DNA of 48,969 bases from Gemmatimonadota bacterium (GCA_016179225.1 JACORV010000012.1:1-48969), one strand, 5' to 3'. Counted from the stretch's first letter, positions 6,743 through 31,479 are shown. The notes: generated by a model from the sequence alone, not told the origin. Made by a program: numbers and translations.

Positions 6743-7824
6743 GTGCGGTCCTCGTGGTGGGCGGCGGCATCACCGGTCTCGTCGCGGCGCACGCCGCGAC
6801 GCGTGACGGTCACGACGTGACGCTGCTCGAGGCGAGCTCGCGACTCGGCGGGCTGATCCTCACCGAGCGCGTGGACGGGTTCCTCGTCGAAGCAGGCCCC
6901 GACGCCTTTCTCGCCGGCCGGCCCGAGATCCCGGCGCTGGTGGGCGAGCTCGGGCTCGCCGGTGACCTCCTCGCGCAGCGGGTCCGCACGATTCTCCTGG
7001 GCGATGGTGGCGAGTTGGTTCCTCTGGCGCCGGGCGCGGCGGCGGCGGTGCTCGAGCTCGCTACGAGCGAGCGCGAGGCGGCCGCCGGGTTCACGACCCT
7101 GCGCGGCGGGCTGGGCTCGTTGATCGCCGCGCTCGCCGCGCGACTCGGCGATCGCGTCCGGCTTGGAGCGCGGGCTCGCGCGGTGGTGCGCGACGGGGCT
7201 CAACTCTTGGTGGACGTCGAAGGTAGTCCGGGCCTCGTCGCCGACGCAGTCGTCCTCGCCCTGCCCGGCCATGCCGCCGCGCCGCTGCTCCGGGAGATGG
7301 ACCCGCTTCTCGCCACGATGCTCGGCGCGCTCGAGTACCGCTCATCGAACACCGTCGCCCTCGCCTACGATGCCAGGGACGTGGGACACGCGCTGGACGC
7401 CTCCGGCATGGTGGTGCCGCGCGAGGCGGCGCGGGCGGTCGTGGCGTGCACCTTCGCCTCGTCGAAGTTCGAGGGCCGCGCGCCGCAGGGCGGGGTGCTG
7501 CTGCGCGCGTTCGTGGGGCGCTGCGGCGCCCGAGAAGTGGAGGAGGAAAGCGACGAACGGATCGTGGATGTGGCGCGCGCGGACCTCGAGCCGCTGTTGC
7601 GCATCACGCGCGCGCCGCGTTGGTCGCGCGTGTACCGCTGGCCCCGCGCGCTCCCCCGGCCCGACGCGCGGGACGGCGAGCCGCGCCACCTGATCCGCGA
7701 GCGCGCGCTCAGGGCCGGCGTCGTGCTGGCCGGATCGGCGGAGGGCGGAGCCGGGCTCTCCGACGGCGTGGCGAGCGGCCGGCGCGCCGCGACCGCCATT
7801 CGCGAGGTAGCGGTCGCGTCGTGA
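6739..7824 (+). CDS. hemY: HemY/CgoX-type (copro/proto)porphyrinogen oxidase, short form (~361 aa)
   Basis: GTG 6739 overlaps the hemH stop. Motifs VVGGGITGL, LEASSRLGG, EAGPDAF, FTTLRGG, SSKFEGRAP, RWPRALP. Confidence 0.85.
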   Translation: MSAVLVVGGGITGLVAAHAATRDGHDVTLLEASSRLGGLILTERVDGFLVEAGPDAFLAGRPEIPALVGELGLAGDLLAQRVRTILLGDGGELVPLAPGAAAAVLELATSEREAAAGFTTLRGGLGSLIAALAARLGDRVRLGARARAVVRDGAQLLVDVEGSPGLVADAVVLALPGHAAAPLLREMDPLLATMLGALEYRSSNTVALAYDARDVGHALDASGMVVPREAARAVVACTFASSKFEGRAPQGGVLLRAFVGRCGAREVEEESDERIVDVARADLEPLLRITRAPRWSRVYRWPRALPRPDARDGEPRHLIRERALRAGVVLAGSAEGGAGLSDGVASGRRAATAIREVAVAS

Positions 7825-8696
7825 CCAGGCGTATCCGCACCTACCGCGAGCTTTCGGGCGAGGACCGCTCCGGCATCGTGGCCCAGGTGGTCGCGCAGCA
7901 GGACCGGGTCCGCGAACGTCTCCGCGCGGTACGGCACACCGTCGCCGTCATGAGCGGCAAGGGGGGCGTGGGCAAGAGCTTCGTCACCGCGCTCCTCGCG
8001 GCGGCGCTGGCGGAGGCCGGCAAGCGTGTGGGCGTGCTGGATGCCGATCTTCAAGGTCCGACGGCGGCGAGAATGCTGGGCGTCGGGCGGGAGCCGCTCG
8101 CGGTGCGCGACGACGACGTCGTGCCCCCCGAAGGCGCGCGGGGCGTGCGCGTGATCTCCAGCGACCTCCTCCTAGCCGAGGGCGCGCCGCTCAAGTGGAA
8201 GGAGCCGGGCGAGGCGCGGTTCGTCTGGCGCGGCACACTCGAGGCGGGGATGCTGCGCGAGTTCCTGGCCGACGTGGCCTGGGGCGAGCTCGACCTCCTG
8301 CTGGTGGACCTCCCGCCGGGGACCGACCGCCTCACCACCCTGATGGAGCTTCTTCCCGGGCTCACCGGCGTGCTGGCCGTAACCATCCCGTCCGACGCCT
8401 CGCTGCGGGCCGTGGCCCGCTCGCTCCAGCTGGCGCGCGAGGGCCGCATCCGCATTCTCGGCATCGTGGAGAACATGGCCAACTACCGCTGCGCGCACTG
8501 CGGCGCTCAGGGCCCGCTCATGACCGGCGACGCCGCCGATAGGCTCGCCGCCGAGGCCGCGGCCCCGGTGCTCGCGCGCCTCCCGTTCGATCCGGCGGTG
8601 CAGGCGGCCGTGGACGGGGGCCGGATCGGCGAGCCGGCCGACCCGGCCTTCGCAGCGCTCGCCGCGGCCCTGCTCGCTCGGGTGGAGGGCGCATGA
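7821..8696 (+). CDS. mrp: Mrp/NBP35/ApbC Fe-S cluster carrier ATPase
   Basis: SGKGGVGKS, LDADLQGP, WGELDLLLVDLPPGT, GIVENM..CAHC. GTG start overlaps the hemY stop. Confidence 0.9.
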   Translation: MTRRIRTYRELSGEDRSGIVAQVVAQQDRVRERLRAVRHTVAVMSGKGGVGKSFVTALLAAALAEAGKRVGVLDADLQGPTAARMLGVGREPLAVRDDDVVPPEGARGVRVISSDLLLAEGAPLKWKEPGEARFVWRGTLEAGMLREFLADVAWGELDLLLVDLPPGTDRLTTLMELLPGLTGVLAVTIPSDASLRAVARSLQLAREGRIRILGIVENMANYRCAHCGAQGPLMTGDAADRLAAEAAAPVLARLPFDPAVQAAVDGGRIGEPADPAFAALAAALLARVEGA

Positions 8697-9166
8697 AGTT
8701 CCTCTGCGTCGACTGCGATCAGCGCATGGTCTTCGAGGAGCGGCAGCTCCCGGGCGATGGCACACTGGCGGTCGCGTTTCGGTGCCCGGCCTGCGGGCGC
8801 ACCGTTGCCCTGTTGACGAATCCCTGGGAGACGCAGCTCGTCTCGTCGCTGGGCGTGATCATCGGCGGCCGCACGGTGCCGGAGCAGCCGATGGAGCTGA
8901 CCCGCACCACCACCGAAGGAGGGCGCGAGGGCGCCTTCGCCGACGCCGAGCCCGGTGAGGAGCGGCGCGATTCCACGCCCGGCGGCGCGCCAGCCCGTGT
9001 CACCTGGGACGACCGGGCGACGCAGCGCCTCGCGAACGTGCCGTCGTTCGTGCGCGGGATGGTGAAGCGCATCTACGCCGACTACGCGCTCGAGCGCGGT
9101 ATCGCGGTCATCACGCCCGAGGTGATGGACGCCGCCCGCAGCGACCTCGGCCTCGAGGGGATGTAA
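8693..9166 (+). CDS. Zn-ribbon (CxxC...CxxC) protein with C-terminal PCP_red-like domain
   Basis: CVDC and CPAC pairs. C-terminus WDDRATQRLANVPSFVRGMVKRIYADYALERGIAVITPEVMDAA resembles the BchB/ChlB C-terminal (PCP_red) pattern. Confidence 0.75.
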   Translation: MKFLCVDCDQRMVFEERQLPGDGTLAVAFRCPACGRTVALLTNPWETQLVSSLGVIIGGRTVPEQPMELTRTTTEGGREGAFADAEPGEERRDSTPGGAPARVTWDDRATQRLANVPSFVRGMVKRIYADYALERGIAVITPEVMDAARSDLGLEGM

Positions 9167-9169
9167 TCG

Positions 9170-9505
9170 GTGGCCGACGTCGAGCGGCGGCAGGAGCCGG
9201 AGACCGCGGGCGCCTCCGCCGGACACCGGGACGGCACGCCTCCCGCGGAGCCCTCGACGCGGACGGCCGAATTCGAGGAGCGCCAGGTCGGCGACCTCCG
9301 GATCCGCATCGACCGGACGCTGTGCGTCGGCTTCGCCGACTGCGTGAAGGCCGCGCCCGACGGCTTCGTGGTCGCCGAGGACGGCATCACGGTCTTCGTG
9401 AACCCGGAGCGCGTCGATCGCGCGACGCTCGTCGAAGCGTGCGACGTCTGCCCCGTGGACGCGATCACGGTGTGGGATCACGCCGGCAATCAGATCGTGC
9501 CCTGA
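9170..9505 (+). CDS. Monocluster ferredoxin ([3Fe-4S]/[4Fe-4S])
   Basis: IDRTLCVGFADCVKAAPDGF...ACDVCPVDAI. Confidence 0.85.
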   Translation: MADVERRQEPETAGASAGHRDGTPPAEPSTRTAEFEERQVGDLRIRIDRTLCVGFADCVKAAPDGFVVAEDGITVFVNPERVDRATLVEACDVCPVDAITVWDHAGNQIVP

Positions 9506-9512
9506 CCAAGAC

Positions 9513-10280
9513 GTGCGCCCGCTTTCCGGCCGCCGCATCGTGGTGACCCGCCCTGCCGATCGGGCCGCGCGCCTGATCGAGCGCCTGCGCGCCCGCGGCG
9601 CGGAGCCGATCCCGTTCCCCACCATCCGCTTGACGCCCGCCGATCCCGCGCCCCTCGACGCGGCGATCGCCGCACTCGACACGTTCGACTGGGTGATTTT
9701 CACCAGTCGGGAGGGCGTCGACGCGTTCTTCCGGCGGCTGGATGCGCGCGGCGGGATGCCCGCCGCGCTAGCAGGCTCCGGAGGACGGGCATCGTCGGCG
9801 GGCGTGGGGAGGCTCGGCATCGCGGCGATCGGCCCGGCGACCGCCCAGGCGCTCCGCGACCATCGCGTCGAGCCCGCCCTCGTCCCGCGCGAATACGTCG
9901 CCGAGGCCCTCCTCGAAGCGCTCGGCGACGTGCGTGGGCTGCGGATGCTCCTCCCGCGCGCCGACATCGCCCGCAAGGCGCTGGCCGACGGCCTGCGCGC
10001 GCGGGGCGCCGAGGTCGTCGAGGTCGCCGCCTACCGCACCGTGGCGAGCGGCGCGCCGCCCCCCGCGCTGGAGGGCGTGGACGCGATTACCTTCACCAGC
10101 TCCTCGACGGTGCGGCACTTCGTGGAGAGCGGCGCGGACTTTGGCCGCGCCAAGATCGTGTGCATCGGCCCGGTCACCGCGGCCACGGCGCGCGAGCTCG
10201 GCCTGCCCGTTCACGCCGTGGCCAGCGAGTACACTGAAGACGGCCTCATCGAGGCGCTGGAAGGAGTGTTCACCGCGTGA
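9513..10280 (+). CDS. hemD: Uroporphyrinogen-III synthase
   Basis: [38 protein letters not shown]. Confidence 0.95.
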
Positions 10281-11260
10281 GCAGGTTCCCCGCGACCCGT
10301 CTCCGCCGCTGGCGCCGCACCCCCGCCCTGCGCGCGATGACGCGCGAGGCGACGGTGGCCGCGAGCGACTTCGTCTATCCCCTCTTCGTCACCGCCGGCG
10401 CGACCGTCCGTCGGGAGGTGCCCAGCATGCCCGGCGTGCACCAGCTTTCCGCGGACGGCGAGCTGGAGCGCGAGATCGCGGAGGTCGCCGACCTCGGGAT
10501 CGGCGCCGTCATCCTCTTCGGCCTTCCGGCCACCAAGGACGGCCAGGCCACCCAGGCTTACGCCGCGGGCGCGCCGGTCCAGCGCGCCATCGGTCTCATC
10601 AAGAAGGCGGCGCCGGAGCTGGTGGTCATCACCGACGTCTGCCTCTGCGAGTACACCGACCACGGCCACTGCGGCATCATCAGGGAAGGTGTGGTCGACA
10701 ACGACTCCACCCTCGACCTCCTCGGCAAGGTGGCCGTGAGCCACGTCGCAGCCGGCGCGGACGTCGTGGCGCCCAGCGGGATGATGGACGGGATGGTGGG
10801 CGCGATCCGTGCCGCCCTCGACGCGGCGGGCCACGCCGACACCGCGATCCTGAGCTACGCGGTGAAATACGCCAGCGCCTTCTATGGCCCCTTTCGCGAC
10901 GCCGCCCAGAGTCCGCCCGCCTTCGGCGACCGGAAGAGCCACCAGATGGATCCCGCGAACGTGCGTGAAGCGCTGCGCGAGTGCGAGCTCGACGTCGGCG
11001 AAGGCGCGGACGCGCTGATGGTGAAGCCGGCCCTGCCCTACCTCGACGTCGTGCGCGCGGTGCGCGAGAGGTTCCCGCTCCCGCTCGCCGCGTACAACGT
11101 GAGCGGCGAGTACGCGATGGTGAAGGCGGCGGCCGCGAAAGGCTGGCTCGACGAGCGCGCGTGCGTGCTCGAGCTGCTCACCGGCATCCGGCGCGCCGGC
11201 GCGGACCTGATTCTGACGTACCACGCCAAAGACGCCGCGCGCTGGCTGCGGGAAGCGTGA
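10277..11260 (+). CDS. hemB: Porphobilinogen synthase (Zn-binding type)
   Basis: [52 protein letters not shown]. Confidence 0.98.
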
Positions 11261-11268
11261 CGCCGGCC
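11221..11268 (+). repeat. 48-bp direct repeat, copy 1 (3' end of hemB and its stop codon)
   Basis: CCACGCCAAAGACGCCGCGCGCTGGCTGCGGGAAGCGTGACGCCGGCC, identical to 14282-14329. Confidence 0.95.
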
Positions 11269-11326
11269 AGGCCGCGCCAGGTCGCGCACGCCGCCGCGCG
11301 CCGCAGTTCCGCTCGGGGCTCAAGCC

Positions 11327-14263
11327 ATGGCTGAGCTTCTGGATCAGGTCCGAGCCGTGCTCGCCGACCGTTACGCGGTCGAGCGAGAGCTGGGGCAGGG
11401 CGGCATGGCCACCGTCTACCTGGCCGCCGATCGCAAGCACCACCGCTCAGTCGCCATCAAGGTCCTGAATCCGGAGCTGGGCACGATCCTGGGCCCCGAG
11501 CGGTTCCTGCGCGAGATCGAGATCGCCGCCGGGCTCACCCATCCGCACATCCTGCCTCTGCTCGATTCCGGGGAGTCCGGGGGCTTGCTTTACTACGTGA
11601 TGCCCTTCGTCGAAGGGGAATCGCTGCGGGATCGGCTGAGTCGCGAGAAACAGCTCCCCGTGGCCGAGAGTGTGCGGATCGCGCGGGAGGTCGCGGCCGC
11701 GCTCGCGTACGCGCACAGCCGCGACGTCGTGCATCGCGACATCAAGCCGGAAAACGTGCTCCTCTCGGGCGGGGAGGCCGTGGTGGCGGATTTCGGGATC
11801 GCCCGTGCGGTGACCGCGGCCGGCGGTCAACGGCTGACCGATACCGGCGTCGTCATCGGGACGCCGGCATACATGAGCCCGGAGCAAGCGACGGCCGAAC
11901 GCCAGCTCGACGGACGCAGCGACACCTACAGCCTGGGCTGCGTGTTGTACGAGATGTTGGCCGGCCAGCCACCGTTCACCGGCCCCACGGTGGAGAGCGT
12001 CGTGCACCAGCACCTGGCCGCCGACGCGCCGGCGGTCACGGCCATACGCTCGACGGTGCCGGCCGCCGTCGCGGCGGCCATTGGGCGGGCGCTGGCCAAG
12101 GCGCCGGCGGACCGATTCGCAACCGCCGCCCAGTTCGCCGAGGCGCTCGCGTCGGCTGCTGAGGGGACCGTCCCGCCGTTGGTGGTGCGGCCACGCCGCG
12201 CCAGGTGGTTGAAGCTCGGGGCCGGCCTGGGGCTGGCGGCCGCCGCCGCCGTTGCGGTGCTGCTGGGGCGGAATCGGTCCCCCGTCATCGCGGCGGCGTC
12301 GGTGGTCGCGGTCGTGCCGTTCGCTCCCACAACGCCCGACACCGGCCTCACGCGCCTCGGTCGCGATCTCGTCGTCACGCTCAGTGCCAACCTCGACGGC
12401 GTCGGCGAGATCCGCACCGTAGATGCCCTGACGATCCTCGCGCACACGGGGGATCCGAACCAGAGCTTCACGCGAGATGACGCCGCTGCGCTGGCGCGGC
12501 GGCTCGGGGCGAGCAGTGTGGTTCAGGGCAGCCTGCTCCGCGCCGGCGCGGCGGTCCGCCTGGAGCTCGGCCTGTTTCAGACGGATCGCGATGCCGAGGT
12601 GGCGCATGCGTCCGTGGTGGCGTCGCCTGGCGACTTTAACGCCCTGACGGATTCGGTCACCTGGGCGCTGCTCCGGCAGATCTGGCGCGCACGTGAGCCG
12701 CCGACACCGAGCCTGAGCGCCGTGACGACCCGCTCGCTGACGTCGCTGCGGGCGTTCCTCGAGGGCGAGCGGGCCAGCGTGGATGGACGCTGGCCCGAGG
12801 CCGAAGCGGCCTTCGCCCGTGCCATCGAGGCGGATTCCGCCTTCTGGCTCGCCTACTGGCGATATGCTTACGCGCGCAACTGGAATCTCCTGGAACCGGA
12901 CACCGCGATCGTCAGCGCCTACCGACGGCATCGCGACGCGCTGCCCGAACGTGAGCGTCTGCTCGTGGAAGCGGAGCTGGCCGACAGCGCCAGCGCCCGC
13001 CTGGGGCTTCTCGAGGAAGTCACGCGTCGTTTCCCGGACTATTGGCCGGGGTGGATGGAGTACGCCGACTGGCTGGTGCACTTCGCGCCCCTGCTGGAGC
13101 CGGTGAGCGAGAGGGCCCGCGCGGCGCTGGAGCGAACCATCGCCCTGAACCCCCGCTTGGTGCCCGCATGGACGCACCTGGCCTGGATGGCGGTGATGGA
13201 GGGCGACAGCGTTGCGCTGTCACGGGCCGTCACAACCCTCCAGCGGCTCGGTGCGCCGACGACTGGTCACACGCTTGCTCAATACGAAAGTCCCCGCGTT
13301 TTCCGCGTGCTGGACCGACTGCTGCGCAACGGCGGCGCCGCCGACCCTTCCCTGGTGGATTCCGCCGTCGCCGCGATGACCGCGAACGACGCCCTATGGC
13401 TCTGGTTCGGGTTCCCCGCAGCCCAGATCAAAGTGAGTCGCCAGGTGCAGCGCCGCGGCGTCCCGGCGCCCGAGTCGGCGTTCCAACTGTGGTTGATCGC
13501 GATGTCGTGGGCGGCCCGGGGCGCGTGGGACTCTGCGGCGGTCGCGCTGGACGACTACGTCCGCGCCGACCCCGGGGGGCGGGCTGCGCTCCGCGCGTAC
13601 GGTCTCGCCGTGGCCGGCGTGTGGCTCGGCGCGCTGAACGAAGCCGCGGCGGTGCACTTCCGGAGCGCGGCCGTGCGAGACACCGCGCACGAGAGCCCCG
13701 CCGCGCACTCCGAGCGCGCCTGGCTGGACGGGTTCATGGCCGCCACCCGCGGCGATCCGGCACGGGTCGCCGCCGCGCGGGCAGCGCTCCGCCGATCCAC
13801 GGACTCGGCCGCGGCCCTGCTCGAGGGCTCGCTGAGCACATTCGAGACGACGATGTCCGGCGCGCCAGCCGCTGCGGGCCGGGCGCTCGCCGCCCTGGAG
13901 CGCGAACGGGCAGAGCGCACACTGGCGCTCACCGATCCCGACGGGCTGGGCGACAACCATCCCTTCGTGAGGGCGCTCGATCGCCTGGCCGCAAGCCGCT
14001 GGCTCCTGGCGGCGGGCGACACCGCCACGGCGCTCGCGCTGCTGGCGTGGCACGACGAGGTGCGTATCCCCATGGCCGCCTTTGTGAGCAAGGTGCTCTC
14101 GGGGCTCGTGCATCTCGAGCTGGCGCGCATCGAGGCCGCACGCGGTCGCGTCGCAGCGGCGAGGGTCCACTACGAACAGTTTCTTCGGCGCTACGACATG
14201 CCGGTTGCCGCGCACCGGCATCTGGTGACCGACGCGCGCCGCGCGCTCGGCGAGATGCGGTGA
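11327..14263 (+). CDS. Hanks-type Ser/Thr protein kinase with a hydrophobic segment, TolB-N-like and TPR-like C-terminal regions
   Basis: LGQGGMATVY, VAIK, HRDIKPEN, DFG, GTPAYMSPEQ, D.YSLGCVLYEML, followed by a hydrophobic segment and helical repeats. Confidence 0.93.
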   Translation: MAELLDQVRAVLADRYAVERELGQGGMATVYLAADRKHHRSVAIKVLNPELGTILGPERFLREIEIAAGLTHPHILPLLDSGESGGLLYYVMPFVEGESLRDRLSREKQLPVAESVRIAREVAAALAYAHSRDVVHRDIKPENVLLSGGEAVVADFGIARAVTAAGGQRLTDTGVVIGTPAYMSPEQATAERQLDGRSDTYSLGCVLYEMLAGQPPFTGPTVESVVHQHLAADAPAVTAIRSTVPAAVAAAIGRALAKAPADRFATAAQFAEALASAAEGTVPPLVVRPRRARWLKLGAGLGLAAAAAVAVLLGRNRSPVIAAASVVAVVPFAPTTPDTGLTRLGRDLVVTLSANLDGVGEIRTVDALTILAHTGDPNQSFTRDDAAALARRLGASSVVQGSLLRAGAAVRLELGLFQTDRDAEVAHASVVASPGDFNALTDSVTWALLRQIWRAREPPTPSLSAVTTRSLTSLRAFLEGERASVDGRWPEAEAAFARAIEADSAFWLAYWRYAYARNWNLLEPDTAIVSAYRRHRDALPERERLLVEAELADSASARLGLLEEVTRRFPDYWPGWMEYADWLVHFAPLLEPVSERARAALERTIALNPRLVPAWTHLAWMAVMEGDSVALSRAVTTLQRLGAPTTGHTLAQYESPRVFRVLDRLLRNGGAADPSLVDSAVAAMTANDALWLWFGFPAAQIKVSRQVQRRGVPAPESAFQLWLIAMSWAARGAWDSAAVALDDYVRADPGGRAALRAYGLAVAGVWLGALNEAAAVHFRSAAVRDTAHESPAAHSERAWLDGFMAATRGDPARVAAARAALRRSTDSAAALLEGSLSTFETTMSGAPAAAGRALAALERERAERTLALTDPDGLGDNHPFVRALDRLAASRWLLAAGDTATALALLAWHDEVRIPMAAFVSKVLSGLVHLELARIEAARGRVAAARVHYEQFLRRYDMPVAAHRHLVTDARRALGEMR

Positions 14264-14281
14264 ATCGGTGTTGACAGCTTG

Positions 14282-14329
14282 CCACGCCAAAGACGCCGCG
14301 CGCTGGCTGCGGGAAGCGTGACGCCGGCC
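14282..14329 (+). repeat. 48-bp direct repeat, copy 2 (supplies the hemE start codon)
   Basis: Identical to 11221-11268; contains the hemE GTG at 14318. Confidence 0.95.
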
Positions 14330-15355
14330 GAACCGCGCCTGCTCGCGGCCTGCCGCCGCCGGCCCGTAGACAGGATTCCCGTCTGGTTCATGCGCCAGGC
14401 AGGGCGGTACCTCGCCGAGTACCGCGCGGTGCGCGCCAAGCACTCGATCCTCGAGATCTGCCACACGCCCGAGCTCGCGGCCGAAGTCACGCTGCAACCC
14501 GTCGAGCACCTGGGCGTAGACGCCGCGATCCTCTTCGCCGACATTCTGCTCCCCGTCGAGCCCCTCGGCCTCGGTCTCTCGTTCTCGGAAGGCGCCGGCC
14601 CCCTGATCGAGCGGCCCATCCGCGCGCCCGAGGACGTGGCCGCGCTTCCCGACGTGGACCCGCCGCGCGATCTCGGCTTCGTGGTCGAGGCCGTCGCCGC
14701 CTGCAAGCACGCGCTCGCCCAGCGCGCGCCCGGCACACCGCTCATCGGGTTCGCGGGCGCTCCGTTCACGCTCGCCAGCTACGTCATCGAAGGCGGCAGC
14801 TCGCGCAACTTCACCCTGACGAAGCGGTTCATGTACCAGCACCCCGAGGCCTGGCACGAACTGCTCCGCCGGCTCGCCGACCTGGTGGGCGGACTCCTCG
14901 GCGCACAGGCGCGGGCCGGCGCCGACGTCGTGCAGCTGTTCGACTCGTGGGTCGGATGCCTGGCGCCGGAGGACTACCGGCGCTTCGTGCTCCCGCACAG
15001 CCGCCGCGCCATCGAGCTCGCGCAGGCGGCCGGCGTGCCGGTCATCCACTTCGGCACGGATACGGCCACGCTGCTCGAGCTCCTGGTCGAGGCCGGCGGC
15101 GAGGTGATGGGCGTGGACTGGCGCATCCCGATCGACCAAGCGTGGGCGCGCACCGGCGACCGCGCCGTGCAAGGCAACCTGGACCCCGCTGCGCTCTTCG
15201 CGCCCCGCCCCGAGCTCGAGACCCGCGTCCGCGACATCCTCCAGCGGGTGGGGGGGCGCCCGGGCTTCATCTTCAACCTCGGCCACGGCATCCTGCCGGG
15301 CACGCCCGTCGACAACGTCCGCGCGGTCGTTGACCTGGTGCACGCCTTCGCGTGA
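14318..15355 (+). CDS. hemE: Uroporphyrinogen decarboxylase
   Basis: [56 protein letters not shown]. Confidence 0.97.
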
Positions 15356-16641
15356 GCACCGAGCGCTCCGCGGCCCTGTTCAGAGAAGCGCTGGCGCTCC
15401 TGCCCGGCGGGGTGGACAGCCCCGTCCGCGCGTTCAAGAGCGTCGGCGGGACGCCACGCTTCATCGAGCGGGGCGAGGGCGCCTGGCTCGTGGACGCGGA
15501 CGGCAACCGCTACGTGGACTACGTCCTCGCGTGGGGGCCGCTCATCCTCGGCCACGCGCCGCCCGCTGTGGTAGAGGCGGTGGAGCGGGTCCTGCGGCGC
15601 GGCACGGCGTTCGGCGCGCCCACCGCGCTCGAGACTGAGCTCGCGAGCCGCATCGTCGCGACGTTTCCGTCCATTCAGATGGTGCGGTTCGTGAATTCGG
15701 GCACCGAAGCCGCCATGAGCGCCTTGCGTCTTGCCCGCGCGTTCACCGGTCGCGCGAAAGTGATCAAGTTCGAGGGATGCTACCACGGCCACGCCGATGC
15801 CTTCCTCGTCCAGGCCGGCTCGGGTGTCGCGACCCTCGGCTTTCCCGACTCCCCGGGCGTGCCTCCAGCCACGGCCGCCGACACCCTCGTCGCCCCGTTC
15901 AACGACCTCGTCGCCGCGCGACGGCTCTTCGAACAGCATCCGAACCAGATCGCCGCGATCATCCTAGAGCCCGTGGTGGGCAACATGGGCGTGGTGCCGC
16001 CGGCGGACGGCTTCCTGGCCGGCCTGCGCGACCTCACCACCACTGCGGGCGCGCTCCTCGTCTTCGACGAGGTGATGACCGGCTGGCGCGTTCACCCCGG
16101 GGGCGCGCAGGGCCTCTACGGCGTCGCGCCCGACCTCACCTGCCTCGGCAAGGTCATCGGGGGCGGGCTCCCGGTCGGCGCGTACGGCGGGCGACGCGAC
16201 ATCATGGAGATGGTCGCGCCCGCCGGACCCGTGTACCAGGCGGGCACGCTGTCCGGCAATCCGCTCGCGATGGCCGCCGGCATCGCCACCCTCGACGCCC
16301 TCGCCACGCCGGGGGTGTGGGAGCGCGCCGAGCAAGCCGCCTCAGCCGCCGAGACCACCCTGCGCGAAACCGCACAGCGCGACGGAGCCGCGCTCATGGT
16401 GCAACGTGTCGGCACCATGTTCACCCCATTCTTCACGGATCGTCCGGTGAGTGACTTCGCCGCCGCGAAAACCGCCGACCGCGAGCGCTATGCCGTGTTC
16501 TTCCACCGGATGCTTGAGGCCGGCGTCTATCTGCCGCCCTCGCCGTTCGAGGCCGCCTTCGCGTCGACCGTTCACGGCGAGACCGAAATCGCGGCCTTCG
16601 CCGAAGCCGCTCGGCGCGCCCTGTCAGGGCTAGGGCACTGA
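15352..16641 (+). CDS. hemL: Glutamate-1-semialdehyde 2,1-aminomutase
   Basis: [54 protein letters not shown]. Confidence 0.97.
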
Positions 16642-16652
16642 GCCGGCGCGCG

Positions 16653-16700
16653 TCCTCACCTCCTCACTTCCTCGCCACATCACCACATCACCACATCACC
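16653..16700 (+). repeat. Six 8-bp tandem units (TCCTCACC-like x3, ACATCACC x3)
   Basis: TCCTCACC TCCTCACT TCCTCGCC ACATCACC ACATCACC ACATCACC, read directly. Confidence 0.85.
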
Positions 16701-16713
16701 GTCCTTCGAGGTG

Positions 16714-16743
16714 TTGACACCGTTCGCTTGCGAACCCTATACT
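16714..16743 (+). promoter_or_regulatory. Near-consensus sigma70 promoter for the USP-to-oxidase operon
   Basis: TTGACA at 16714-16719, an 18-bp spacer, and TATACT at 16738-16743, about 50 bp upstream of ATG 16793. Confidence 0.7.
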
Positions 16744-16792
16744 CGACTTTGATTCTCCCGTACATAATCGAAACACCTGACGCGGGCGTGCG

Positions 16793-18781
16793 ATGTATCA
16801 CGAGATCTTCGTACCCGTCGATAATTCCCAGCCTTCGGACTGGGCGGTTGATCGTGCGATCGAGCTGTGTCGGCGCTCGGGAGGCCGTATCACCGGGAAT
16901 CACGTGTATGCCGCCCGCTTGCACGACGTGCGGTTCCGGCAGCTCGAGACCGGCTTGCCCGCCCGATTCCAGACCCCCGAGGAGATCAGGAAGCAGCGCA
17001 AGATCCACGACAAGCTCATCGAGAAAGGCCTCCAGCTCATCGCCGACAGCTTCCTCGACCAGCTCGGGAAGAGGTGCGAAGCCGCGGGCGTGAAGCTCGC
17101 GCGGCAGCTCCTCGAGGGGATCAACTACGAAGAGATCGTGAACGAGGTGAACCGCGGCCAGGGCCGGCTTCCGGGGCTGATCGGCTTCGATCCCAACCGT
17201 GCGGCGGGTTACGACGGCGGGGAGAAAGTCCGCAGCGACGTGAGGCTCGGCGAGGACGGCCGCATCGTGGCGGAGGACGAGGACCAGGCCGCGCGGCTGG
17301 TCGGGACGTCGCGACGGATATACGACCTCGTCGCGATCGGCGCGCACGGGCTGGGGCGCCAGGCGTACTCCCAGCTGGGCGGTGTGGTCGCCCGGGCGCT
17401 GCGCGGCGTCGAGAAGGACATGCTGATCGTGCGCGACGACCGCCCGTTCGAGGGCGGCCGGTTCATGGTCTGCGTGGACGGCTCGTCGTACGGCTACCAG
17501 GCGATGCGCGCGGCGCTCGAGCTCGCCGACGCCTTCGGCGGATCCCTGTACGTGTGCAGCGCCTTCGACGTGGAGTACCACCACGTCGTCTTCCACAACA
17601 TCAAGGACGTGCTCTCCGTCCAGGCCTCGAAGGTCTTCAAGTTCGAGGAACAGGAGGAGCTGCACAACAACATCATCGACAAGGGGCTCCTGAAGCTCTG
17701 CCAGGCCAACATCAAGCGGGCCGAGGCCATGGCGCAGCAGTTCCCGGACGTCCCGGTCAAGACGCAGATCCTCATCGGCAAGCCGTTCCAGGTGATCATG
17801 CAGTGGGCCGCGGAGATCGAGCCGTCGCTGCTGGTCATCGCGCGGCACGGGGCGCACCGCATCGAGGGCACGGACCTGGGCTCGCAGGCCGAGAACCTGG
17901 TCCGCATCGCCCCCTGCAATACGCTGCTGGTCGGCACGACGGGGATCCGGCCCGAGGACATCCCGTGGATCGAGGAGGACGGTCAGGCGGGGTTGCCGTG
18001 GGCGCCGGAGGCCGAGGTCCGGATTCTGCGCGTGCCACCCTTTGCCCAGGGGATCGCGCGTCGCGCGGTGGAGGAGTACGTCCTGGAGCGCACCAACGGC
18101 GAGCCGCAGACGGTCACGAACCGGTGGCTGGACGAGGCGATCCGGAAGCTCCTTCCCACGCACATGCAGCTCATCATGGGCATCGGCACGGCCGAGGAGA
18201 TCGCGCTCGCCGAAGTGAAGGCCACCGAGCAGATGACGAAGACGCTGGTGCTCGGCAGCGACGCGGACGTCGAGCCCGCCGGAGCCACGATCGAGACGAA
18301 GTGCCCGGTACCGCCGTATCACACCGCGACGCGACCGCGGACGGCCGCCGACCCGATCGTGTGGACCGAGGAGGCGTGGCAGCGGCTTCAGCTCGTGCCG
18401 CTCATCGCACGGCCGCTGGCCCGGAACACCGTCGAGCGCTTCGCGCGCCACCACGATATCTGGCGCGTGACGACCGGCGTGATGGACGACAACAAGCAGG
18501 CCATGATCGAAGCCGACGAGTTCGACATCGACACGATGATGGTCATGTTCACGGAGCTCCGTGCCAAGCAGATCCGCGCCGAGGCCGAAGGCCCCGACGC
18601 GCTCTCGCCCGAGATGCGCCGCTTCATCGAGGAGGCGAAGGCCCAGGGGATCACCCGCTGCCCCATCCGGGACATCGAGGAGCAGCTGGGGAAGTGCCCG
18701 GTGGACTTCAAGACGGTGAAGCCGGAGGACGCGAAGAAAGCGGTGGAGAAGTTGCTGGAAAGCATGCCCGGGGACGACTAG
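16793..18781 (+). CDS. Tandem universal stress protein with two PCP_red-like domains and three Cys-Pro motifs
   Basis: USP1 IFVPVDNS...DLVAIGAHG...LGGV; USP2 MVCVDGS...LLVIARHG...LGSQAENLVRIAPC; WAPEAEVRILRVPPF and WTEEAWQRLQLVPLIAR; KCPV, RCPI and KCPV. Confidence 0.85.
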   Translation: MYHEIFVPVDNSQPSDWAVDRAIELCRRSGGRITGNHVYAARLHDVRFRQLETGLPARFQTPEEIRKQRKIHDKLIEKGLQLIADSFLDQLGKRCEAAGVKLARQLLEGINYEEIVNEVNRGQGRLPGLIGFDPNRAAGYDGGEKVRSDVRLGEDGRIVAEDEDQAARLVGTSRRIYDLVAIGAHGLGRQAYSQLGGVVARALRGVEKDMLIVRDDRPFEGGRFMVCVDGSSYGYQAMRAALELADAFGGSLYVCSAFDVEYHHVVFHNIKDVLSVQASKVFKFEEQEELHNNIIDKGLLKLCQANIKRAEAMAQQFPDVPVKTQILIGKPFQVIMQWAAEIEPSLLVIARHGAHRIEGTDLGSQAENLVRIAPCNTLLVGTTGIRPEDIPWIEEDGQAGLPWAPEAEVRILRVPPFAQGIARRAVEEYVLERTNGEPQTVTNRWLDEAIRKLLPTHMQLIMGIGTAEEIALAEVKATEQMTKTLVLGSDADVEPAGATIETKCPVPPYHTATRPRTAADPIVWTEEAWQRLQLVPLIARPLARNTVERFARHHDIWRVTTGVMDDNKQAMIEADEFDIDTMMVMFTELRAKQIRAEAEGPDALSPEMRRFIEEAKAQGITRCPIRDIEEQLGKCPVDFKTVKPEDAKKAVEKLLESMPGDD

Positions 18782-18787
18782 CTACTC

Positions 18788-20113
18788 ATGGCGGAGATGG
18801 CGACGAGCGTACTTCTCGCCGCGGAGCGGGAAGCGCCCGCGGGGGAGTGTCTCCCGCACGTTGTCGCGTGGAACCTCACGCGGCGCTGCAATCTCCGCTG
18901 CTCCCATTGCTACATCTCCGCCGGCCCGTCCGAGTCCGCGGCCGGCGAGCTCGACACGGCGGCGTGCCGCCGCGTCATCGAGCAGCTGCTGGCGGTGAAC
19001 CCAGCCCCGATGCTGATCCTGTCGGGCGGCGAGCCGCTGCTCAGGGATGACCTCCCCGCGATTGCGTCGTACGCCGCCCGGCGCGGCGCCACCGTCGTGG
19101 TGGGCACCAACGGGACGCTCCTCACCGAGGAGCGCATCGTCGGGCTCATGGAGGCGGGCGTCACCGGGGTGGCGGTGAGTGTGGACTCGCTGCGGCCCCG
19201 CTATCACGACAGTTTCCGCCGCAAGACCGACGCGCTGGCCGACACGATGGGCGCGATCGAGCGGCTCCGGACCCGCCGGCTCGACTTCATCGTGCAGACG
19301 ACCGCCACCCGCGGGAACAAGAGCGAGGTGCCGGCGCTGATCGAGTGGGCCGCCGCACAGGGCGCCGTGGCGTTCAACCTCTACTTCCTGGTGCCGACGG
19401 GGCGCGGCGGCCAGCTCACGGATCTGACGGCGTCCGAGTACGAGGCGCTCCTGGGCGTGCTCGCCGATTACGAGCGCCGGTACCGCGGTGCCATGATGGT
19501 GCGCGCCAAGTGCGCGCCGCACTTCATCCGGCGCGTGTACGAGGAGTCCCCGGGCTCGCCCGTCCTCAACTACCAGACCCGCTGCCCCTGCGGGATCCAG
19601 TACTGCCGGATCACGCCCGAGGGCGCGATCACCCCCTGCCCCTACCTGCCCACGATCGCAGGAGACCTGCGCACCCAGACCTTCGGCGAGATCTGGAATG
19701 GCTCGCCGGTCTTCGCCGACCTCAGGCGGCGGGAGCTGGGCGGCAAGTGCGGGCGCTGCGAGTACCGCCTCATCTGCGGGGGATGCCGGGCGCGCGCCTT
19801 CGCCTCAACCGGCGATTACCTCGCGGCCGACCCGTCGTGCGTCTACGAGCCCCCGGGCGACCGGCCGCTGATCGAGCGGCCCGCGGTGGCGTACGGCACG
19901 CCTGTGGCGCCGACGCTGGCCTGGTCGCCCGAAGCGGAAGAGCGCATGCGCCGCATCCCGTCCTTCGTGCGCGGCGTGGTGATGAGGCGCGTGGAGGACT
20001 TCGCGCGCGCCCGCGGTCTCGGCACCGTCACGCCGGAGCTGCTGAGCGAGATCCGCGGCGCCATGCCAATCGACTTCTCCCGGCGCAAACCCTTCTTCGT
20101 GCGCGATGACTGA
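18788..20113 (+). CDS. Radical SAM/SPASM protein (AhbD/NirJ-like) with C-terminal PCP_red-like domain
   Basis: WNLTRRCNLRCSHC, SGGEPL; SPASM Cys pattern CPCG..C...PC...KCGRCEY..CGGCRARA...DPSC; tail WSPEAEERMRRIPSFVR. Confidence 0.88.
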   Translation: MAEMATSVLLAAEREAPAGECLPHVVAWNLTRRCNLRCSHCYISAGPSESAAGELDTAACRRVIEQLLAVNPAPMLILSGGEPLLRDDLPAIASYAARRGATVVVGTNGTLLTEERIVGLMEAGVTGVAVSVDSLRPRYHDSFRRKTDALADTMGAIERLRTRRLDFIVQTTATRGNKSEVPALIEWAAAQGAVAFNLYFLVPTGRGGQLTDLTASEYEALLGVLADYERRYRGAMMVRAKCAPHFIRRVYEESPGSPVLNYQTRCPCGIQYCRITPEGAITPCPYLPTIAGDLRTQTFGEIWNGSPVFADLRRRELGGKCGRCEYRLICGGCRARAFASTGDYLAADPSCVYEPPGDRPLIERPAVAYGTPVAPTLAWSPEAEERMRRIPSFVRGVVMRRVEDFARARGLGTVTPELLSEIRGAMPIDFSRRKPFFVRDD

Positions 20114-21851
20114 CCTCTTCCCGTTCCTCCAGGCGGCGGCCGACACAGCCGGGGCCTACCACGCCTTTCCCGTCATCGGAAGCCGCGCCGCCACGTGGAT
20201 CGCGGCCGAAGTCCACCTGATGTTCGCCGCCTTCGTCCTCGGCGTGCCGATGTTCGCCGTCATCACCGAGGCGGTCGGCATCTTCACCAAAGATGAGCGC
20301 TACCGGGAGCGGTACGACCGGCTCTCCAAGGAGTTCACGCGCCTCCTGCTGGTGGCCTACAGCGCCACCGCCATCTGGGGTGCGGTGCTCGTCTTCTTCC
20401 TCACCACGCTCTACCCGCGGTTCTGGAACCACATGACAGAGATCTTCCAGCTGTCGATGTGGATCTACGTCGGGCTGTTCTTCGTCGAGTCGTTCACCCT
20501 GTACCTCTACTACTACGGCTGGGACCGCTGGAACAAGGGCCGGGCAAAGTACTGGCATTGGACGCTGGGCATCCTGCTCAACGTCTGGGGCACCGCCGTC
20601 ATGCTGATCGCCAACGGCTGGCTCACCTACATGATGAGCCCGCCCGCGGGCGTCACCGCGCAGACCCTGCCCTCCGAGGTCGGCCTCTGGAACGCCATCG
20701 CCAACGCTACCTGGATGCCGATCAACATCCACCGCCTCATCGCCAACGCCGTCTTCGGCGGATCGATCGTCGCCGCCTACGCGGCCTACCGCTTCCTCGC
20801 GGCCCGGACCGACGAGGAGCGCGCGCACTACGACTGGATGGGCTACGTCGGCAACTTCGTCGCGATCTCCACCTTCATCGTCCTGCCCTTCGCCGGCTAC
20901 TGGCTGGGCCGCGAGTTTTACGAGTACAACCAGCAGCTCGGCATCACGATGATGGGCGGCTTCATGAGCTGGCTCTGGATCCTCCAGGCGTTCCTGATCG
21001 GCGTCCTGTTTCTGGCCGGCAACTACTACCTCTGGATAGGCATGGGCCGCATCCCAGGGGCCGAGCGTTACCGGCCGTACACCAAGTGGCTGCTCATCAT
21101 CCTGATCCTTGGTGTCATCGTGTGGTCTACCCCACACACCATGATCGCGAGCCGCCAGGAGCTCGAGGCGATGGGTGGATCGCACCACCCCTTCCTCGGC
21201 GTGCTCGGCGTCATGAGCGCCAAGAATACCGCCGTGAACCTGATGATCCTCACCACCTTCCTGTCCTTCCTGTTCTACCGGCGCGCCAACAAGCGGCCCG
21301 TCGCGCCGTGGGCGAAGCAGGGGATGCTCGCCCAGTGGATCATGTTCGCGATCGCCGCGATGGTCGTGCTCTTCTTCGGCGTGTACGGTTACTTCGTGTC
21401 CGCCATCGTGCGCATCGGCTTCAGCGTGTACCAGGTGCTCGCCGTGCTCACCACCATCGTGGTGGTCACGACGCTGGACATCTTCCTGCTGCGCGGCGCG
21501 GAATCCAGGGGGGAGATCCGCTGGGGCCAGATGCCCGAACGCTCCCAGTACGCCCTGTTCATCCTGGCCGTGACGTTCACGTGGCTGATGGGGCTCATGG
21601 GCTTCGCGCGCAGCGGCATCCGCCAGCACTGGCACGTCTTCGAGGTCATGCGCGACACCAGCCCGGACGCGGTGACCCCCGCCCTGGGCTACGCCTCGAT
21701 CATGATCAGCGTCTGCGTGCTCATCTTCCTGGGGCTGGTCTCGTTCATCTTCTGGCTCTCCGAGCTGGGCACCAAGCCGGCGGAGGCGCACGCCCCCGCG
21801 GCGCCCGCCCCCGGCGCGGGGCCGGCGACCGCTCCCGCGCCCGGGGACTGA
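20106..21851 (+). CDS. Cytochrome bd subunit I (CydA)-like membrane protein, non-canonical (no Q-loop, no cydB)
   Basis: EVHLMFAAFVLGVP, FFVESF.LY.Y..GWDR, ANGW...MMSP, NIHR, and RQHW (compare GRQPW); many TM helices. Confidence 0.8.
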   Translation: MTDLFPFLQAAADTAGAYHAFPVIGSRAATWIAAEVHLMFAAFVLGVPMFAVITEAVGIFTKDERYRERYDRLSKEFTRLLLVAYSATAIWGAVLVFFLTTLYPRFWNHMTEIFQLSMWIYVGLFFVESFTLYLYYYGWDRWNKGRAKYWHWTLGILLNVWGTAVMLIANGWLTYMMSPPAGVTAQTLPSEVGLWNAIANATWMPINIHRLIANAVFGGSIVAAYAAYRFLAARTDEERAHYDWMGYVGNFVAISTFIVLPFAGYWLGREFYEYNQQLGITMMGGFMSWLWILQAFLIGVLFLAGNYYLWIGMGRIPGAERYRPYTKWLLIILILGVIVWSTPHTMIASRQELEAMGGSHHPFLGVLGVMSAKNTAVNLMILTTFLSFLFYRRANKRPVAPWAKQGMLAQWIMFAIAAMVVLFFGVYGYFVSAIVRIGFSVYQVLAVLTTIVVVTTLDIFLLRGAESRGEIRWGQMPERSQYALFILAVTFTWLMGLMGFARSGIRQHWHVFEVMRDTSPDAVTPALGYASIMISVCVLIFLGLVSFIFWLSELGTKPAEAHAPAAPAPGAGPATAPAPGD

Positions 21852-21858
21852 GGCAACC

Positions 21859-22647
21859 ATGTGGCGCACCAACCTCAAGATCGTTGGCCTGGTCGTAGCG
21901 GTGCTGGGGCTCTACACCCTGGTGGCCAATAGCATCCCGCAGCTCCAGTCGGAACTCCCGCAGGCCGTCGAGCTCTCGGGCGACGTCACTCCGGAACAGC
22001 TGGTCGCGGCCGGCGAGCGCATCTACAACGGCGCCGGCGGCTGCACCGCCTGCCACGGCCTGGGCACCCGCGCGCCCAACTTGCTCACCGACGAGGGCGG
22101 CACGGGCACCATCGGCGCGCGCTGCGGAAGCCGCGTGGCCGGGATGAGCTGTAAGGATTACCTCTACCAGTCGCTGACCGAGCCGGCCGTTCACGTCGTC
22201 GAAGGCTACCAGCCCATCATGCAGGACATGCGCCGCACCCTGCCCGCCGACCAGATCTGGGCGGTCATCGCGTTCCTGGAGAGCCAGGGCGGTACGATCG
22301 ACGTGACGGCCGACGACGTGCGCTCCGCGCAGCAGCCCTCCGGAGGTGGAGGCGCCGCACCGCCGGCCGGCGCGACCGCCAGCCTCGATCCCCGCGAGAT
22401 CATGACCGCCAACGGCTGCCTGGGCTGCCACAAGCTCGGTGACCAGGGTGCGGCCGTCGGCCCGCCGTTCGACGGCATGGGCGGCCGCCTCACGTCCGAC
22501 TTCATCCGCACGTCCATCCTGAACCCTGGCGCCGCGATCGCGCGCGGCTACGAGGCCATGGCCGGCGTGATGCCCCCGACCTTCGGGCAGCAGCTCACCG
22601 CGGGGCAGCTCGAGGCTGTGGTGAGCTTCCTCTCGAGCCAGAGGTGA
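21859..22647 (+). CDS. Membrane-anchored diheme cytochrome c
   Basis: N-terminal TM segment; CTACH and CLGCH, each followed by a candidate distal Met (PIMQ, VMPP). Confidence 0.9.
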   Translation: MWRTNLKIVGLVVAVLGLYTLVANSIPQLQSELPQAVELSGDVTPEQLVAAGERIYNGAGGCTACHGLGTRAPNLLTDEGGTGTIGARCGSRVAGMSCKDYLYQSLTEPAVHVVEGYQPIMQDMRRTLPADQIWAVIAFLESQGGTIDVTADDVRSAQQPSGGGGAAPPAGATASLDPREIMTANGCLGCHKLGDQGAAVGPPFDGMGGRLTSDFIRTSILNPGAAIARGYEAMAGVMPPTFGQQLTAGQLEAVVSFLSSQR

Positions 22648-28387: not shown

Positions 28388-28402
28388 GGAGAACGACGCG
28401 CG

Positions 28403-28999: not shown

Positions 29000-29012
29000 G
29001 AGCCGCCGCGCC

Positions 29013-29291
29013 ATGGCGACCGCCGAGCACAAGCATCCGAACTACATCGCCATCTGGATCTACCTGGCCGTGCTCACGGGGGTGGAGCTCGTAGTGGCGC
29101 TGCTCCACTTCCTGCCGCGCCAAATGCTGATCGGGGCGCTGATCTTCCTCGCCATCTGGAAGGCGCTGCTGGTGGCGCTCTACTTCATGCACCTCAGGTT
29201 CGAGCCCAAGCGGCTCGTCGTCATGGTCCTCGCGCCGCTGCCGCTCGCCGTCATTCTCGTGCTGTTCGTCATGACGGAGTTCGGCAAGTGA
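29013..29291 (+). CDS. Cytochrome c oxidase subunit IV family protein
   Basis: LT.VE, KA.LV..YFMHLRFE. Confidence 0.9.
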   Translation: MATAEHKHPNYIAIWIYLAVLTGVELVVALLHFLPRQMLIGALIFLAIWKALLVALYFMHLRFEPKRLVVMVLAPLPLAVILVLFVMTEFGK

Positions 29292-31468: not shown

Positions 31469-31479
31469 CCCTCCCCCCC

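Follow-up and report, generated by a model that had tools for sequence, protein, structure and literature searches.

The question raised by the stretch of DNA analysed here is why three unlike proteins, encoded within one gene cluster of a Gemmatimonadota bacterium, should carry copies of the same small domain, PCP_red (PF08369), which is known mainly as the C-terminus of the BchB/ChlB subunit of dark-operative protochlorophyllide reductase (DPOR). The window, by which the whole stretch of 48,969 nucleotides (nt) is meant, is contig C145 of a 1.8-Mb genome bin (72% complete, ~70% G+C). An earlier interpretation, made without database searches and called here the sequence-only reading, had taken four such segments in a Zn-ribbon protein, a universal stress protein (USP) and a radical S-adenosylmethionine (SAM) enzyme as a possible docking code, by which an Mrp ATPase, a ferredoxin, a heme-sensing USP and a heme-modifying radical SAM enzyme would be assembled into a maturation system for the respiratory complex encoded downstream. 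The four segments were confirmed as genuine PCP_red domains, and the genes for Mrp, the Zn-ribbon protein, the ferredoxin, the USP and the radical SAM enzyme form a five-gene accessory set that is real, conserved and far from chance. In the best explanation, to which a probability of about 0.42 is given, the set would be a module for the oxygen-independent synthesis of heme b. It would supply a heme-rich oxidase cluster and would bring along its own reductant, regulator and means of loading Fe-S clusters.

PCP_red was identified by Pfam hmmscan (gathering cut-off for PF08369, 32.5 bits) above the cut-off in all three proteins, and a six-frame scan of the whole genome bin returned exactly four matches, all inside the window. 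Domain 1 occupies amino acids (aa) 105-149 of the Zn-ribbon protein (9005-9139, + strand, as are all features of the window given below; 52.6 bits in the protein, E 4.8e-14, and 55.1 bits in the six-frame scan), domain 3 aa 524-567 of the USP protein (18362-18493; 43.4 bits, six-frame) and domain 4 aa 379-422 of the radical SAM enzyme (19922-20053; 53.0 bits in the protein, E 3.6e-14, and 58.2 bits six-frame). Domain 2, at aa 398-453 of the USP protein (17984-18151), is divergent. The USP protein as a whole scored 59.9 bits (E 2.4e-16) over two stretches, of which aa 524-567 was the better; domain 2 taken alone is below the cut-off, with a partial Pfam match (17999-18091; 29.6 bits, E 1.6e-6) that covers model positions 1-31 only. 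The family profile that scored domain 2 at 72.3 bits contains the window's own four domains and serves to delimit the domain only, so that the independent evidence for it is the 29.6-bit Pfam match. A third, degenerate repeat in the C-terminus of the USP protein, hinted at by an alignment, was not found by the family profile and was rejected. The sequence-only reading had placed all four segments correctly to within a few codons.

The segments also resemble one another, as had been proposed. By BLASTP the PCP_red domain of the Zn-ribbon protein matched radical SAM tails at 36-48% identity (E 6e-13 to 2e-6), and the tail of the radical SAM enzyme matched aa 387-455 of the USP protein at 39% identity (E 9e-6). 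In an alignment of 21 domains, W, R, P and T were invariant across all four domain types, identity between types was 24-38%, and no His, Cys, Met or Tyr was conserved. A small three-helix fold was predicted by AlphaFold2 (AF2) for each modelled copy (domain 2, aa 405-411, 416-433 and 443-453; domain 3, aa 526-532, 537-553 and 561-574; domain 4, aa 381-388, 392-408 and 416-425), with moderate predicted local distance difference test scores (pLDDT; block means 52-89).

The relationship to DPOR was borne out by alignment of the Zn-ribbon protein's PCP_red to the final ~55 residues of solved ChlB/BchB chains (residues 456-510 of 511 in 2xdq_B and 470-520 of 525 in 3aek_B), and it aligned also to two stand-alone nuclear magnetic resonance structures, 2kru_A and 2l09_A. 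Shared with BchB/ChlB, of which 2ynm_D is a further PDB chain, are the Pfam family, the pattern W..A..RL..VP.FVRG.V.R..E.YA...G...VT and the three predicted helices; in DPOR, moreover, the domain ends a tetrapyrrole-handling Fe-S enzyme that is partnered by a P-loop ATPase of the same broad class as Mrp. The proteins of the window differ in lacking the nitrogenase-like (Oxidored_nitro) body. PCP_red is carried here by Zn-ribbon, USP and radical SAM/SPASM proteins, and relatives have it in arrays of up to six copies. Only the last ~55 positions of the DPOR equivalog model TIGR01278 (cut-off 490) were matched, at 39.5 and 30.7 bits, and neither DPOR genes nor any PF08369 match beyond the four was found in the genome bin by the six-frame scan.

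Conservation of the gene set was examined by searching the USP protein against species-representative genomes and comparing the 80 best of at least 489 related loci (L019-L098), each gene being counted only in loci whose fetched flank reaches it. All 80 loci, among them L075, labelled Rokubacteriota, and L084, labelled Vicinamibacteria, were colinear, with the order Mrp, Zn-ribbon-PCP_red, ferredoxin, USP with two PCP_red domains, radical SAM-PCP_red, bd-like protein, c-type cytochromes and aa3 oxidase. The radical SAM gene was present in 72/72 loci, the gene for a cytochrome bd subunit I-like (CydA-like) protein in 62/62, COX2 in 44/44, the Zn-ribbon gene in 72/75, the ferredoxin gene in 75/78 and Mrp upstream of the Zn-ribbon gene in 67/72, and c-type cytochrome genes were conserved in 44-55 loci. 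The PCP_red proteins, Mrp, the ferredoxin and the CydA-like complex are thus one conserved, co-inherited set, as the earlier interpretation had supposed. Its link to general heme synthesis, by contrast, proved to be local only. In the window, hemD, hemB, a Ser/Thr kinase gene, hemE and hemL are inserted between the ferredoxin and USP genes (9513-16641, assigned by Pfam); HemD, HemB and HemE were found in 0/80 of the related loci, none between the ferredoxin and USP genes, so the interleaved heme genes are peculiar to the lineage of the window. A genome of another family in the same order (G028) has the five genes contiguous and followed by CydA-like, cytochrome c, EB_dh, CarboxypepD_reg and COX2 genes, with no heme genes interposed.

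Among close relatives the PCP_red set is largely all-or-none: 10 of 41 genomes had a PCP_red match, of which eight had the full set (four or five matches), one (G003) had a single match and one (G027) a single weak match. In a sample of 301 Gemmatimonadota genomes, PF08369 was found in 103 and the CydA-like gene in 86, all 86 lying within the 103. The predicted co-occurrence with the CydA-like gene therefore held in 86/86 genomes (85/85 without G201, which is flagged as unpublished), together with adjacency in 62/62 loci. Of the 17 genomes with PF08369 and no CydA-like gene, 15 had one or two strong matches in frames of 530-870 aa (143 aa in G112), which we infer to be BchB-type proteins of phototrophs, and in the other two (G074 and G199) the matches lie near contig starts.

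The CydA-like membrane protein (20106-21851; PF01654 64.6 bits, cut-off 26.2), which has no canonical CydB adjacent, aligned to the solved CydA 5doq_A over aa 22-186 only, that is, over the first four helices. It is followed by three c-type cytochrome genes (21859-22647, 22652-23509 and 23445-25112; Pfam Cytochrom_C, Cytochrome_CBB3 and EB_dh), the third product being fused to a heme b domain of the ethylbenzene-dehydrogenase type, and by an aa3-type heme-copper oxidase cluster of COX2, COX1, COX3, COX4, CtaA (heme a synthase) and DUF420 (25923-31899; Pfam). This arrangement recalls the OR-N family (Murali et al., preprint 10.1101/2021.01.16.426971) and 'TO_1' of Candidatus Manganitrophus (PMC9040806), which in the available text of these papers are bd-like, without a quinol site, and likewise have a CydA-like protein beside c-type cytochromes and a periplasmic heme b domain; the likeness of the CydA-like protein to them rests on the four-helix match and the context, not on phylogeny. 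The main texts of both papers, as far as available, make no mention of accessory Mrp, PCP_red, USP or radical SAM genes and contain neither 'radical SAM' nor 'universal stress' (0 occurrences), and their supplements may list these genes.

Distribution beyond the phylum was determined with a HMMER profile of these PCP_red domains, built from non-DPOR domains and run against 1.84 billion representative proteins; it replaced an earlier word-indexed search with the isolated domain for longer proteins, which was uninformative (1/105 candidates). At E<=0.001, 1797 representative clusters contained PCP_red, with one to six repeats per protein and two to six in the best. Ninety proteins from the best 150 matches were scanned with Pfam, those omitted being mostly shorter than 200 aa. 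USP with PCP_red repeats accounted for 35, radical SAM and/or SPASM with PCP_red repeats for 9 and PCP_red alone for 41; rubredoxin-like with PCP_red was found in 3, and a heme-oxygenase-like fusion and a DUF2199 plus Band_7 protein once each. A nitrogenase-like body was found in 0/90, in a profile ranking that favours non-DPOR proteins. The heme-oxygenase-like fusion (P0172; 463 aa, metagenome) joins a rubredoxin-like domain and three PCP_red domains to a heme-oxygenase-like, TENA/PQQC-type domain (PF14518, 109 bits). Named members came from Nitrospinota and Candidatus Manganitrophus, and Atlas clusters from Gemmatimonadota, Acidobacteriota and Nitrospirota.

A further 80 metagenome loci were found with a diverse USP-PCP_red alignment, 58 of them with enough room downstream of the USP gene. 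The radical SAM gene followed the USP gene directly in 47/58, the common type, of which one example (L129) has the pair amid housekeeping genes. In the other 11, three loci (L156, L162 and L170) had the radical SAM gene just upstream in a cluster from another lineage, shuffled but of the same gene membership, five had a CydA-like gene downstream (L154, L164, L175, L177 and L178), two had Mrp with PCP_red-only proteins (L117 and L159), and one had nothing recognizable. The USP/radical SAM pair is the widest core of the set, with Mrp and the Zn-ribbon-PCP_red protein as a second core pair. In L117 (17075-19667, - strand) Mrp precedes the genes of two PCP_red-only proteins, one of two repeats and one of four, beside DUF420 and a thioredoxin-like gene; USP-PCP_red and CopD-like genes lie 5 kb off, and no radical SAM gene was found in this 22-kb locus. 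In L154 (10001-17544, + strand), as in L164, L175, L177 and L178, USP-PCP_red is directly upstream of the CydA-like gene with no radical SAM gene adjacent, and by Pfam the CydA-like gene of L154 is followed by Rieske, cytochrome b and second CydA-like genes, so that a bd-like oxidase is joined there to complex III-type genes.

The Mrp/NBP35-type Fe-S carrier ATPase (7821-8696; PF10609 211.4 bits) has the P-loop GKGGVGKS and a CxxC motif (C-A-H-C) characteristic of Mrp/NBP35/ApbC carriers; its best NCBIfam match was MrpORP (218 bits, cut-off 450), and its start, taken as the GTG that overlaps the hemY stop, is uncertain. The next gene encodes the Zn-ribbon protein (8693-9166; Pfam and alignment), in which a Zn ribbon (CxxC...CPxC) and a conserved segment are followed by a variable linker and one PCP_red domain, and a single-cluster ferredoxin (9170-9505; Fer4_13 35.9 bits, aa 47-101) comes third. 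A complex of two Mrp copies with the Zn-ribbon protein was predicted in three runs and three controls. The score was 0.68 (runs 0.68, 0.71 and 0.66) against 0.00 for the best control, with at least 91% of contacts common to the runs and a partner pLDDT of at least 76; in the calibration of the tool this score is reached by 58/80 solved complexes and 2/110 mismatched pairs, a calibration that is only roughly valid here owing to custom alignments and two Mrp copies. The predicted interface is formed by residues 1-85 of the Zn-ribbon protein (the Zn ribbon and the LTNPMETQLV..GG segment) and, within PCP_red, by residues 122-123 only; N43, E46-Q48, G58 and G59 of the Zn-ribbon protein and R146, E147 and D151 of Mrp are interface residues invariant in both alignments. 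PCP_red is therefore not the predicted Mrp-docking tag. The sequence-only reading had seen in it a tag that assembles Mrp: the pairing of Mrp with the Zn-ribbon protein passed a controlled prediction, but by way of the Zn-ribbon half and not of PCP_red.

The Zn-ribbon half constitutes a separate family. Its members are always followed in the chain by one to three PCP_red repeats, and the 4/4 matches in the metagenome loci were encoded directly beside Mrp. That the Zn-ribbon protein might be a free-standing form of the rubredoxin-like and PCP_red segments of Nitrospirota-type USP fusions was considered and rejected: a profile of its N-terminal 64 residues matched 11/187 proteins, all small and starting with the Zn-ribbon half, and no USP fusion. 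What remains is a general likeness of architecture between Zn-ribbon-PCP_red and rubredoxin-like-PCP_red segments. On the predicted complex, the protein is proposed to be an Mrp adaptor, with one end on Mrp and the PCP_red end free for another partner, which may be the radical SAM enzyme, the USP protein, a further PCP_red domain or a ligand. A parallel in architecture is offered by pairs such as HypB and HypA, where a SIMIBI-class NTPase that handles a metal cofactor works with a small Cys4 Zn-ribbon metallochaperone from an adjacent gene. Mrp is likewise a P-loop NTPase, with an adjacent Zn-ribbon protein that is predicted to bind through its Zn-ribbon half; it differs in that its cofactor would be an Fe-S cluster and that the Zn-ribbon protein has PCP_red as its second domain.

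The radical SAM/SPASM enzyme (18788-20113; Radical_SAM 88.6, SPASM 38.5 and PCP_red 53.0 bits) is AhbD/NirJ2-like. Its best NCBIfam matches were AhbD (TIGR04545, 299.6 bits) and NirJ2 (297.6 bits), both under the cut-off of 500. Positions 1-339 of the AhbD model were matched end to end by aa 25-355, so that the linker and the PCP_red tail are additions. The motif C34-x3-C38-x2-C41 is present and invariant in 24 homologs, as are the tail residues W379, R386, P391-R395 and T415, and the three-domain architecture was kept in 120/120 of the best homologs, some of which are labelled 'AdoMet-dependent heme synthase' by JGI. The CxxxCxxC motif, the SPASM domain and the full-length model match are thus shared with AhbD/NirJ2; differences are the score under the cut-off, and an extra ~85 residues of linker and PCP_red tail. 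Moreover, of five genomes that carry the cluster, AhbC was found at its cut-off in 0/5 and AhbA/B (PF17805) in 0/5. No AhbD structure was found by a sequence search of the PDB, the nearest entry being PqqE (6c8v_A). A second AhbC/AhbD-like radical SAM match is present elsewhere in the same genome bin (G000:C24:1999-3015, - strand; TIGR04546 162 bits, below the cut-off, in an 829-aa frame), and a similar one was found in genome G065.

The window's own heme genes bear on the probable substrate. Upstream of Mrp lie hemA, hemC, chdC fused to a Rieske domain, hemH and hemY, genes of the coproporphyrin-dependent heme route (2538-7824; Pfam). With HemY, HemH and ChdC in the window and no siroheme route found in the five genomes, the radical SAM enzyme would act in the coproporphyrin-dependent route beside ChdC. 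According to the available text of PMC7242693, some organisms turn coproheme into heme with AhbD and others with ChdC, the two enzymes being listed as alternatives for one step. The window encodes both ChdC and an AhbD-like enzyme, which may form a pair of the aerobic/anaerobic kind represented by ChdC/AhbD and HemF/HemN. The simplest reading of the protein, judged by its sequence, is that it is probably an oxygen-independent coproheme decarboxylase working beside ChdC, and its expression would be coupled to that of a respiratory cluster very rich in heme. The heme-modifying role given to it by the sequence-only reading is possible, but the data are explained no less well by a plain AhbD-like coproheme decarboxylase.

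The tandem-USP protein (16793-18781) consists of two USP domains, two PCP_red domains (59.9 bits) and a C-terminal helical region with three Cys-Pro motifs. PF00582 matched at 109.2 bits in two stretches (cut-off 24 bits), and the AF2 model has a mean pLDDT of 75. The nucleotide-binding motif of the family is G-2x-G-9x-G(S/T); in USP domain 1 it reads G183-x2-G186-x9-G196-G197, with the three glycines invariant in 29 sequences and the final S/T replaced by G. The Cys-Pro motifs (18302-18307, 18659-18664 and 18695-18700; aa 504-505, 623-624 and 635-636) are invariant in the Gemmatimonadota-type USP. C504-P505 aligns with the CPxC knuckle of a rubredoxin-like domain in Nitrospirota-type homologs and, on this alignment, resembles a metal site that has degenerated; the remaining two are confined to the Gemmatimonadota-type clade (10/29 rows). 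The candidacy of the three as heme-regulatory motifs was accordingly dropped, one aligning with a degenerate rubredoxin knuckle and two being clade-specific, and nothing was found to support a heme-sensing USP. Across the 80 genome loci, full-length identity of the USP-PCP_red protein is 79-86% (82% in the Rokubacteriota locus and 80% in that of Vicinamibacteria), and for the adjacent Mrp identity among most of these loci is only 47-58%. An identity so far above that of Mrp points to either very strong constraint or recent transfer of the cluster.

From the domain identity, the conservation of the gene set, its co-occurrence with the CydA-like gene and the predicted Mrp/Zn-ribbon interface, all of which are established here, we infer the following function. 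The radical SAM enzyme would be an oxygen-independent coproheme decarboxylase (heme b synthase), the anaerobic counterpart of ChdC, and its coproheme would come from the window's coproporphyrin-dependent route (HemY, HemH). AhbD-type enzymes carry three [4Fe-4S] clusters; Mrp would load the Fe-S clusters of the radical SAM enzyme, and the ferredoxin would give the electron for SAM cleavage. The Zn-ribbon protein would hold Mrp through its Zn-ribbon half, as the complex prediction suggests. The PCP_red domains of the Zn-ribbon protein, the enzyme and the USP would be three-helix protein-protein modules that recognize each other or a common partner, and the USP protein may be a nucleotide-responsive regulator or scaffold.

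Several observations weigh against this heme b synthase module. The AhbD score is far under the equivalog cut-off, which leaves another tetrapyrrole reaction possible, and as ChdC is already present, a second coproheme decarboxylase looks redundant unless it is oxygen-conditional. Among close relatives ChdC was found in 6/9 genomes with a PCP_red match at E<=1e-5 (the eight full sets and G003, with its one match) compared with 7/32 others, an association that is only suggestive. The radical SAM tail is placed by AF2 at low confidence, with the linker (318-376) below a pLDDT of 50, and the model was unusable as a guide to the tail as a lid or docking element. The complex prediction supports binding of the Zn-ribbon protein to Mrp and does not show it, and no partner of PCP_red was found, so that the shared docking code is still conjecture. 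A CydA-like match was present in 8/80 metagenome loci, and in 2/22 of those with at least 5 kb on both sides, distant USP/radical SAM pairs being found mostly among housekeeping genes. The tie to the oxidase is therefore strict in Gemmatimonadota and lineage-dependent elsewhere.

A rival account is essentially that of the sequence-only reading: the radical SAM enzyme would make a modified heme for the bd-like oxidase, and the module would be a dedicated system for maturation and insertion of this cofactor. The set is indeed built around a tetrapyrrole radical SAM enzyme and tied to the oxidase, with strict co-occurrence with the CydA-like gene (86/86 genomes), adjacency of the radical SAM and CydA-like genes (62/62 loci) and an 8-nt overlap of the two in the window; ChdC is already there for ordinary heme b, the scores fall under the equivalog cut-offs of both AhbD and NirJ2, and the heme complement of bd-like oxidases is not given in the available text of the OR-N and TO_1 papers. 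The closest families are nevertheless AhbD and NirJ2, so that coproheme decarboxylation is simplest, most of the metagenome loci that account for the USP/radical SAM pair in 47/58 have no CydA-like gene within the fetched flank, and no conserved gene of the cluster is a candidate for further tailoring. A modified heme is a doubtful alternative to ordinary heme b. Of the sequence-only reading itself, three elements were corrected: PCP_red is not the predicted Mrp tag, the heme-gene link is local and heme sensing is unsupported.

It also appears unlikely that PCP_red itself binds tetrapyrrole, the enzyme, the USP and the Zn-ribbon protein passing coproheme or heme among them as a chaperone relay or buffer. 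Every context seen for the domain is tetrapyrrole- or redox-related (BchB, the AhbD-like enzymes and the heme-oxygenase-like fusion P0172), its conserved basic residues could pair with propionates, and a single protein can carry an array of from one to six copies, as is the case for some heme-trafficking domains. W, R, P and T are not usual heme axial ligands, and in the 21-domain alignment none of His, Cys, Met and Tyr was conserved. In DPOR the helix that contacts protochlorophyllide in trans is BchB 398-420 according to the available text of PMC12022308 (see also PMC4071322), which lies upstream of the PF08369 region (476-531 in 8vqi_B), and no precedent for PCP_red touching a tetrapyrrole was found for DPOR in the available parts of these two papers. 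With the pigment helix outside PF08369 and no conserved axial ligand, PCP_red as a protein module is favoured over a pigment binder. That a common small domain should have come by chance, and without function, to lie in three neighbouring genes is very improbable, for although the domain is widespread (1797 clusters), the genome bin has only four copies, all in one co-directional cluster, the set of four is largely all-or-none in the 41 close relatives, synteny is kept in 80/80 loci, and USP (35/90) and radical SAM/SPASM (9/90) are the only recurrent catalytic or regulatory partners, other enzymes making up 2/90.

In the window itself, almost all genes from 2538 to 31899 lie on the + strand, with gaps that are short or overlapping. 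The order is hemA, hemC, chdC-Rieske, hemH, hemY, Mrp, Zn-ribbon protein (157 aa) and ferredoxin, then hemD, hemB, Ser/Thr kinase (978 aa), hemE, hemL, tandem-USP (662 aa) and radical SAM/SPASM (441 aa), and finally CydA-like, three c-type cytochromes, a CarboxypepD_reg protein, COX2, COX1, COX3, COX4, CtaA and DUF420. Packing is tight: the Zn-ribbon gene shares its first 4 nt with the end of Mrp, the CydA-like gene shares its first 8 nt with the end of the radical SAM gene, and the USP gene is separated from the radical SAM gene by 6 nt. The nine heme-synthesis genes form one co-directional run (2538-16641), which fits the coproporphyrin-dependent route and is broken by the Mrp, Zn-ribbon and ferredoxin genes and by the Ser/Thr kinase gene (11327-14263). 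ChdC (4759-5826; Chlor_dismutase 206.6 bits, aa 33-220) has a C-terminal Rieske [2Fe-2S] domain (64.1 bits, aa 249-336), a fusion that is an unusual architecture for a coproheme decarboxylase. A gap of 151 nt upstream of the USP gene (16642-16792) is the sole sizeable intergenic space between hemE (14279) and the c-type cytochromes, and may contain an internal promoter that serves the USP, radical SAM and oxidase genes.

No description of the module was found in the searched literature, including the available parts of PMC8115632, the supplements of the bd-oxidase and Manganitrophaceae papers lying outside the search; the five-gene module is apparently undescribed. A more far-reaching and speculative possibility is that PCP_red is a portable hand-off or docking domain of an unrecognized cofactor-maturation machine, in which an AhbD-like enzyme, a nucleotide-sensing USP scaffold and an Mrp adaptor would be joined by way of PCP_red. 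The machine would make a special, possibly modified heme and provide the bd-like oxidases of Gemmatimonadota, Acidobacteriota, Rokubacteriota, Nitrospirota and Nitrospinota with it, and the C-terminal domain of DPOR would in that case be a captured member of an older module.

The bd-like oxidases are proposed terminal oxidases of nitrite oxidizers, manganese oxidizers and many soil bacteria, and are called poorly characterized in the available literature; a helper gene set strictly co-inherited with one of them (86/86 genomes) provides concrete genes for their study. PCP_red, which has been filed as an appendage of DPOR, is really a widespread module, and an Mrp-type Fe-S carrier appears from the data to have a partner protein dedicated to it. 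That ChdC is encoded in the same heme gene cluster as an AhbD-like enzyme suggests that heme synthesis in this little-studied phylum, the Gemmatimonadota, is oxygen-conditional.

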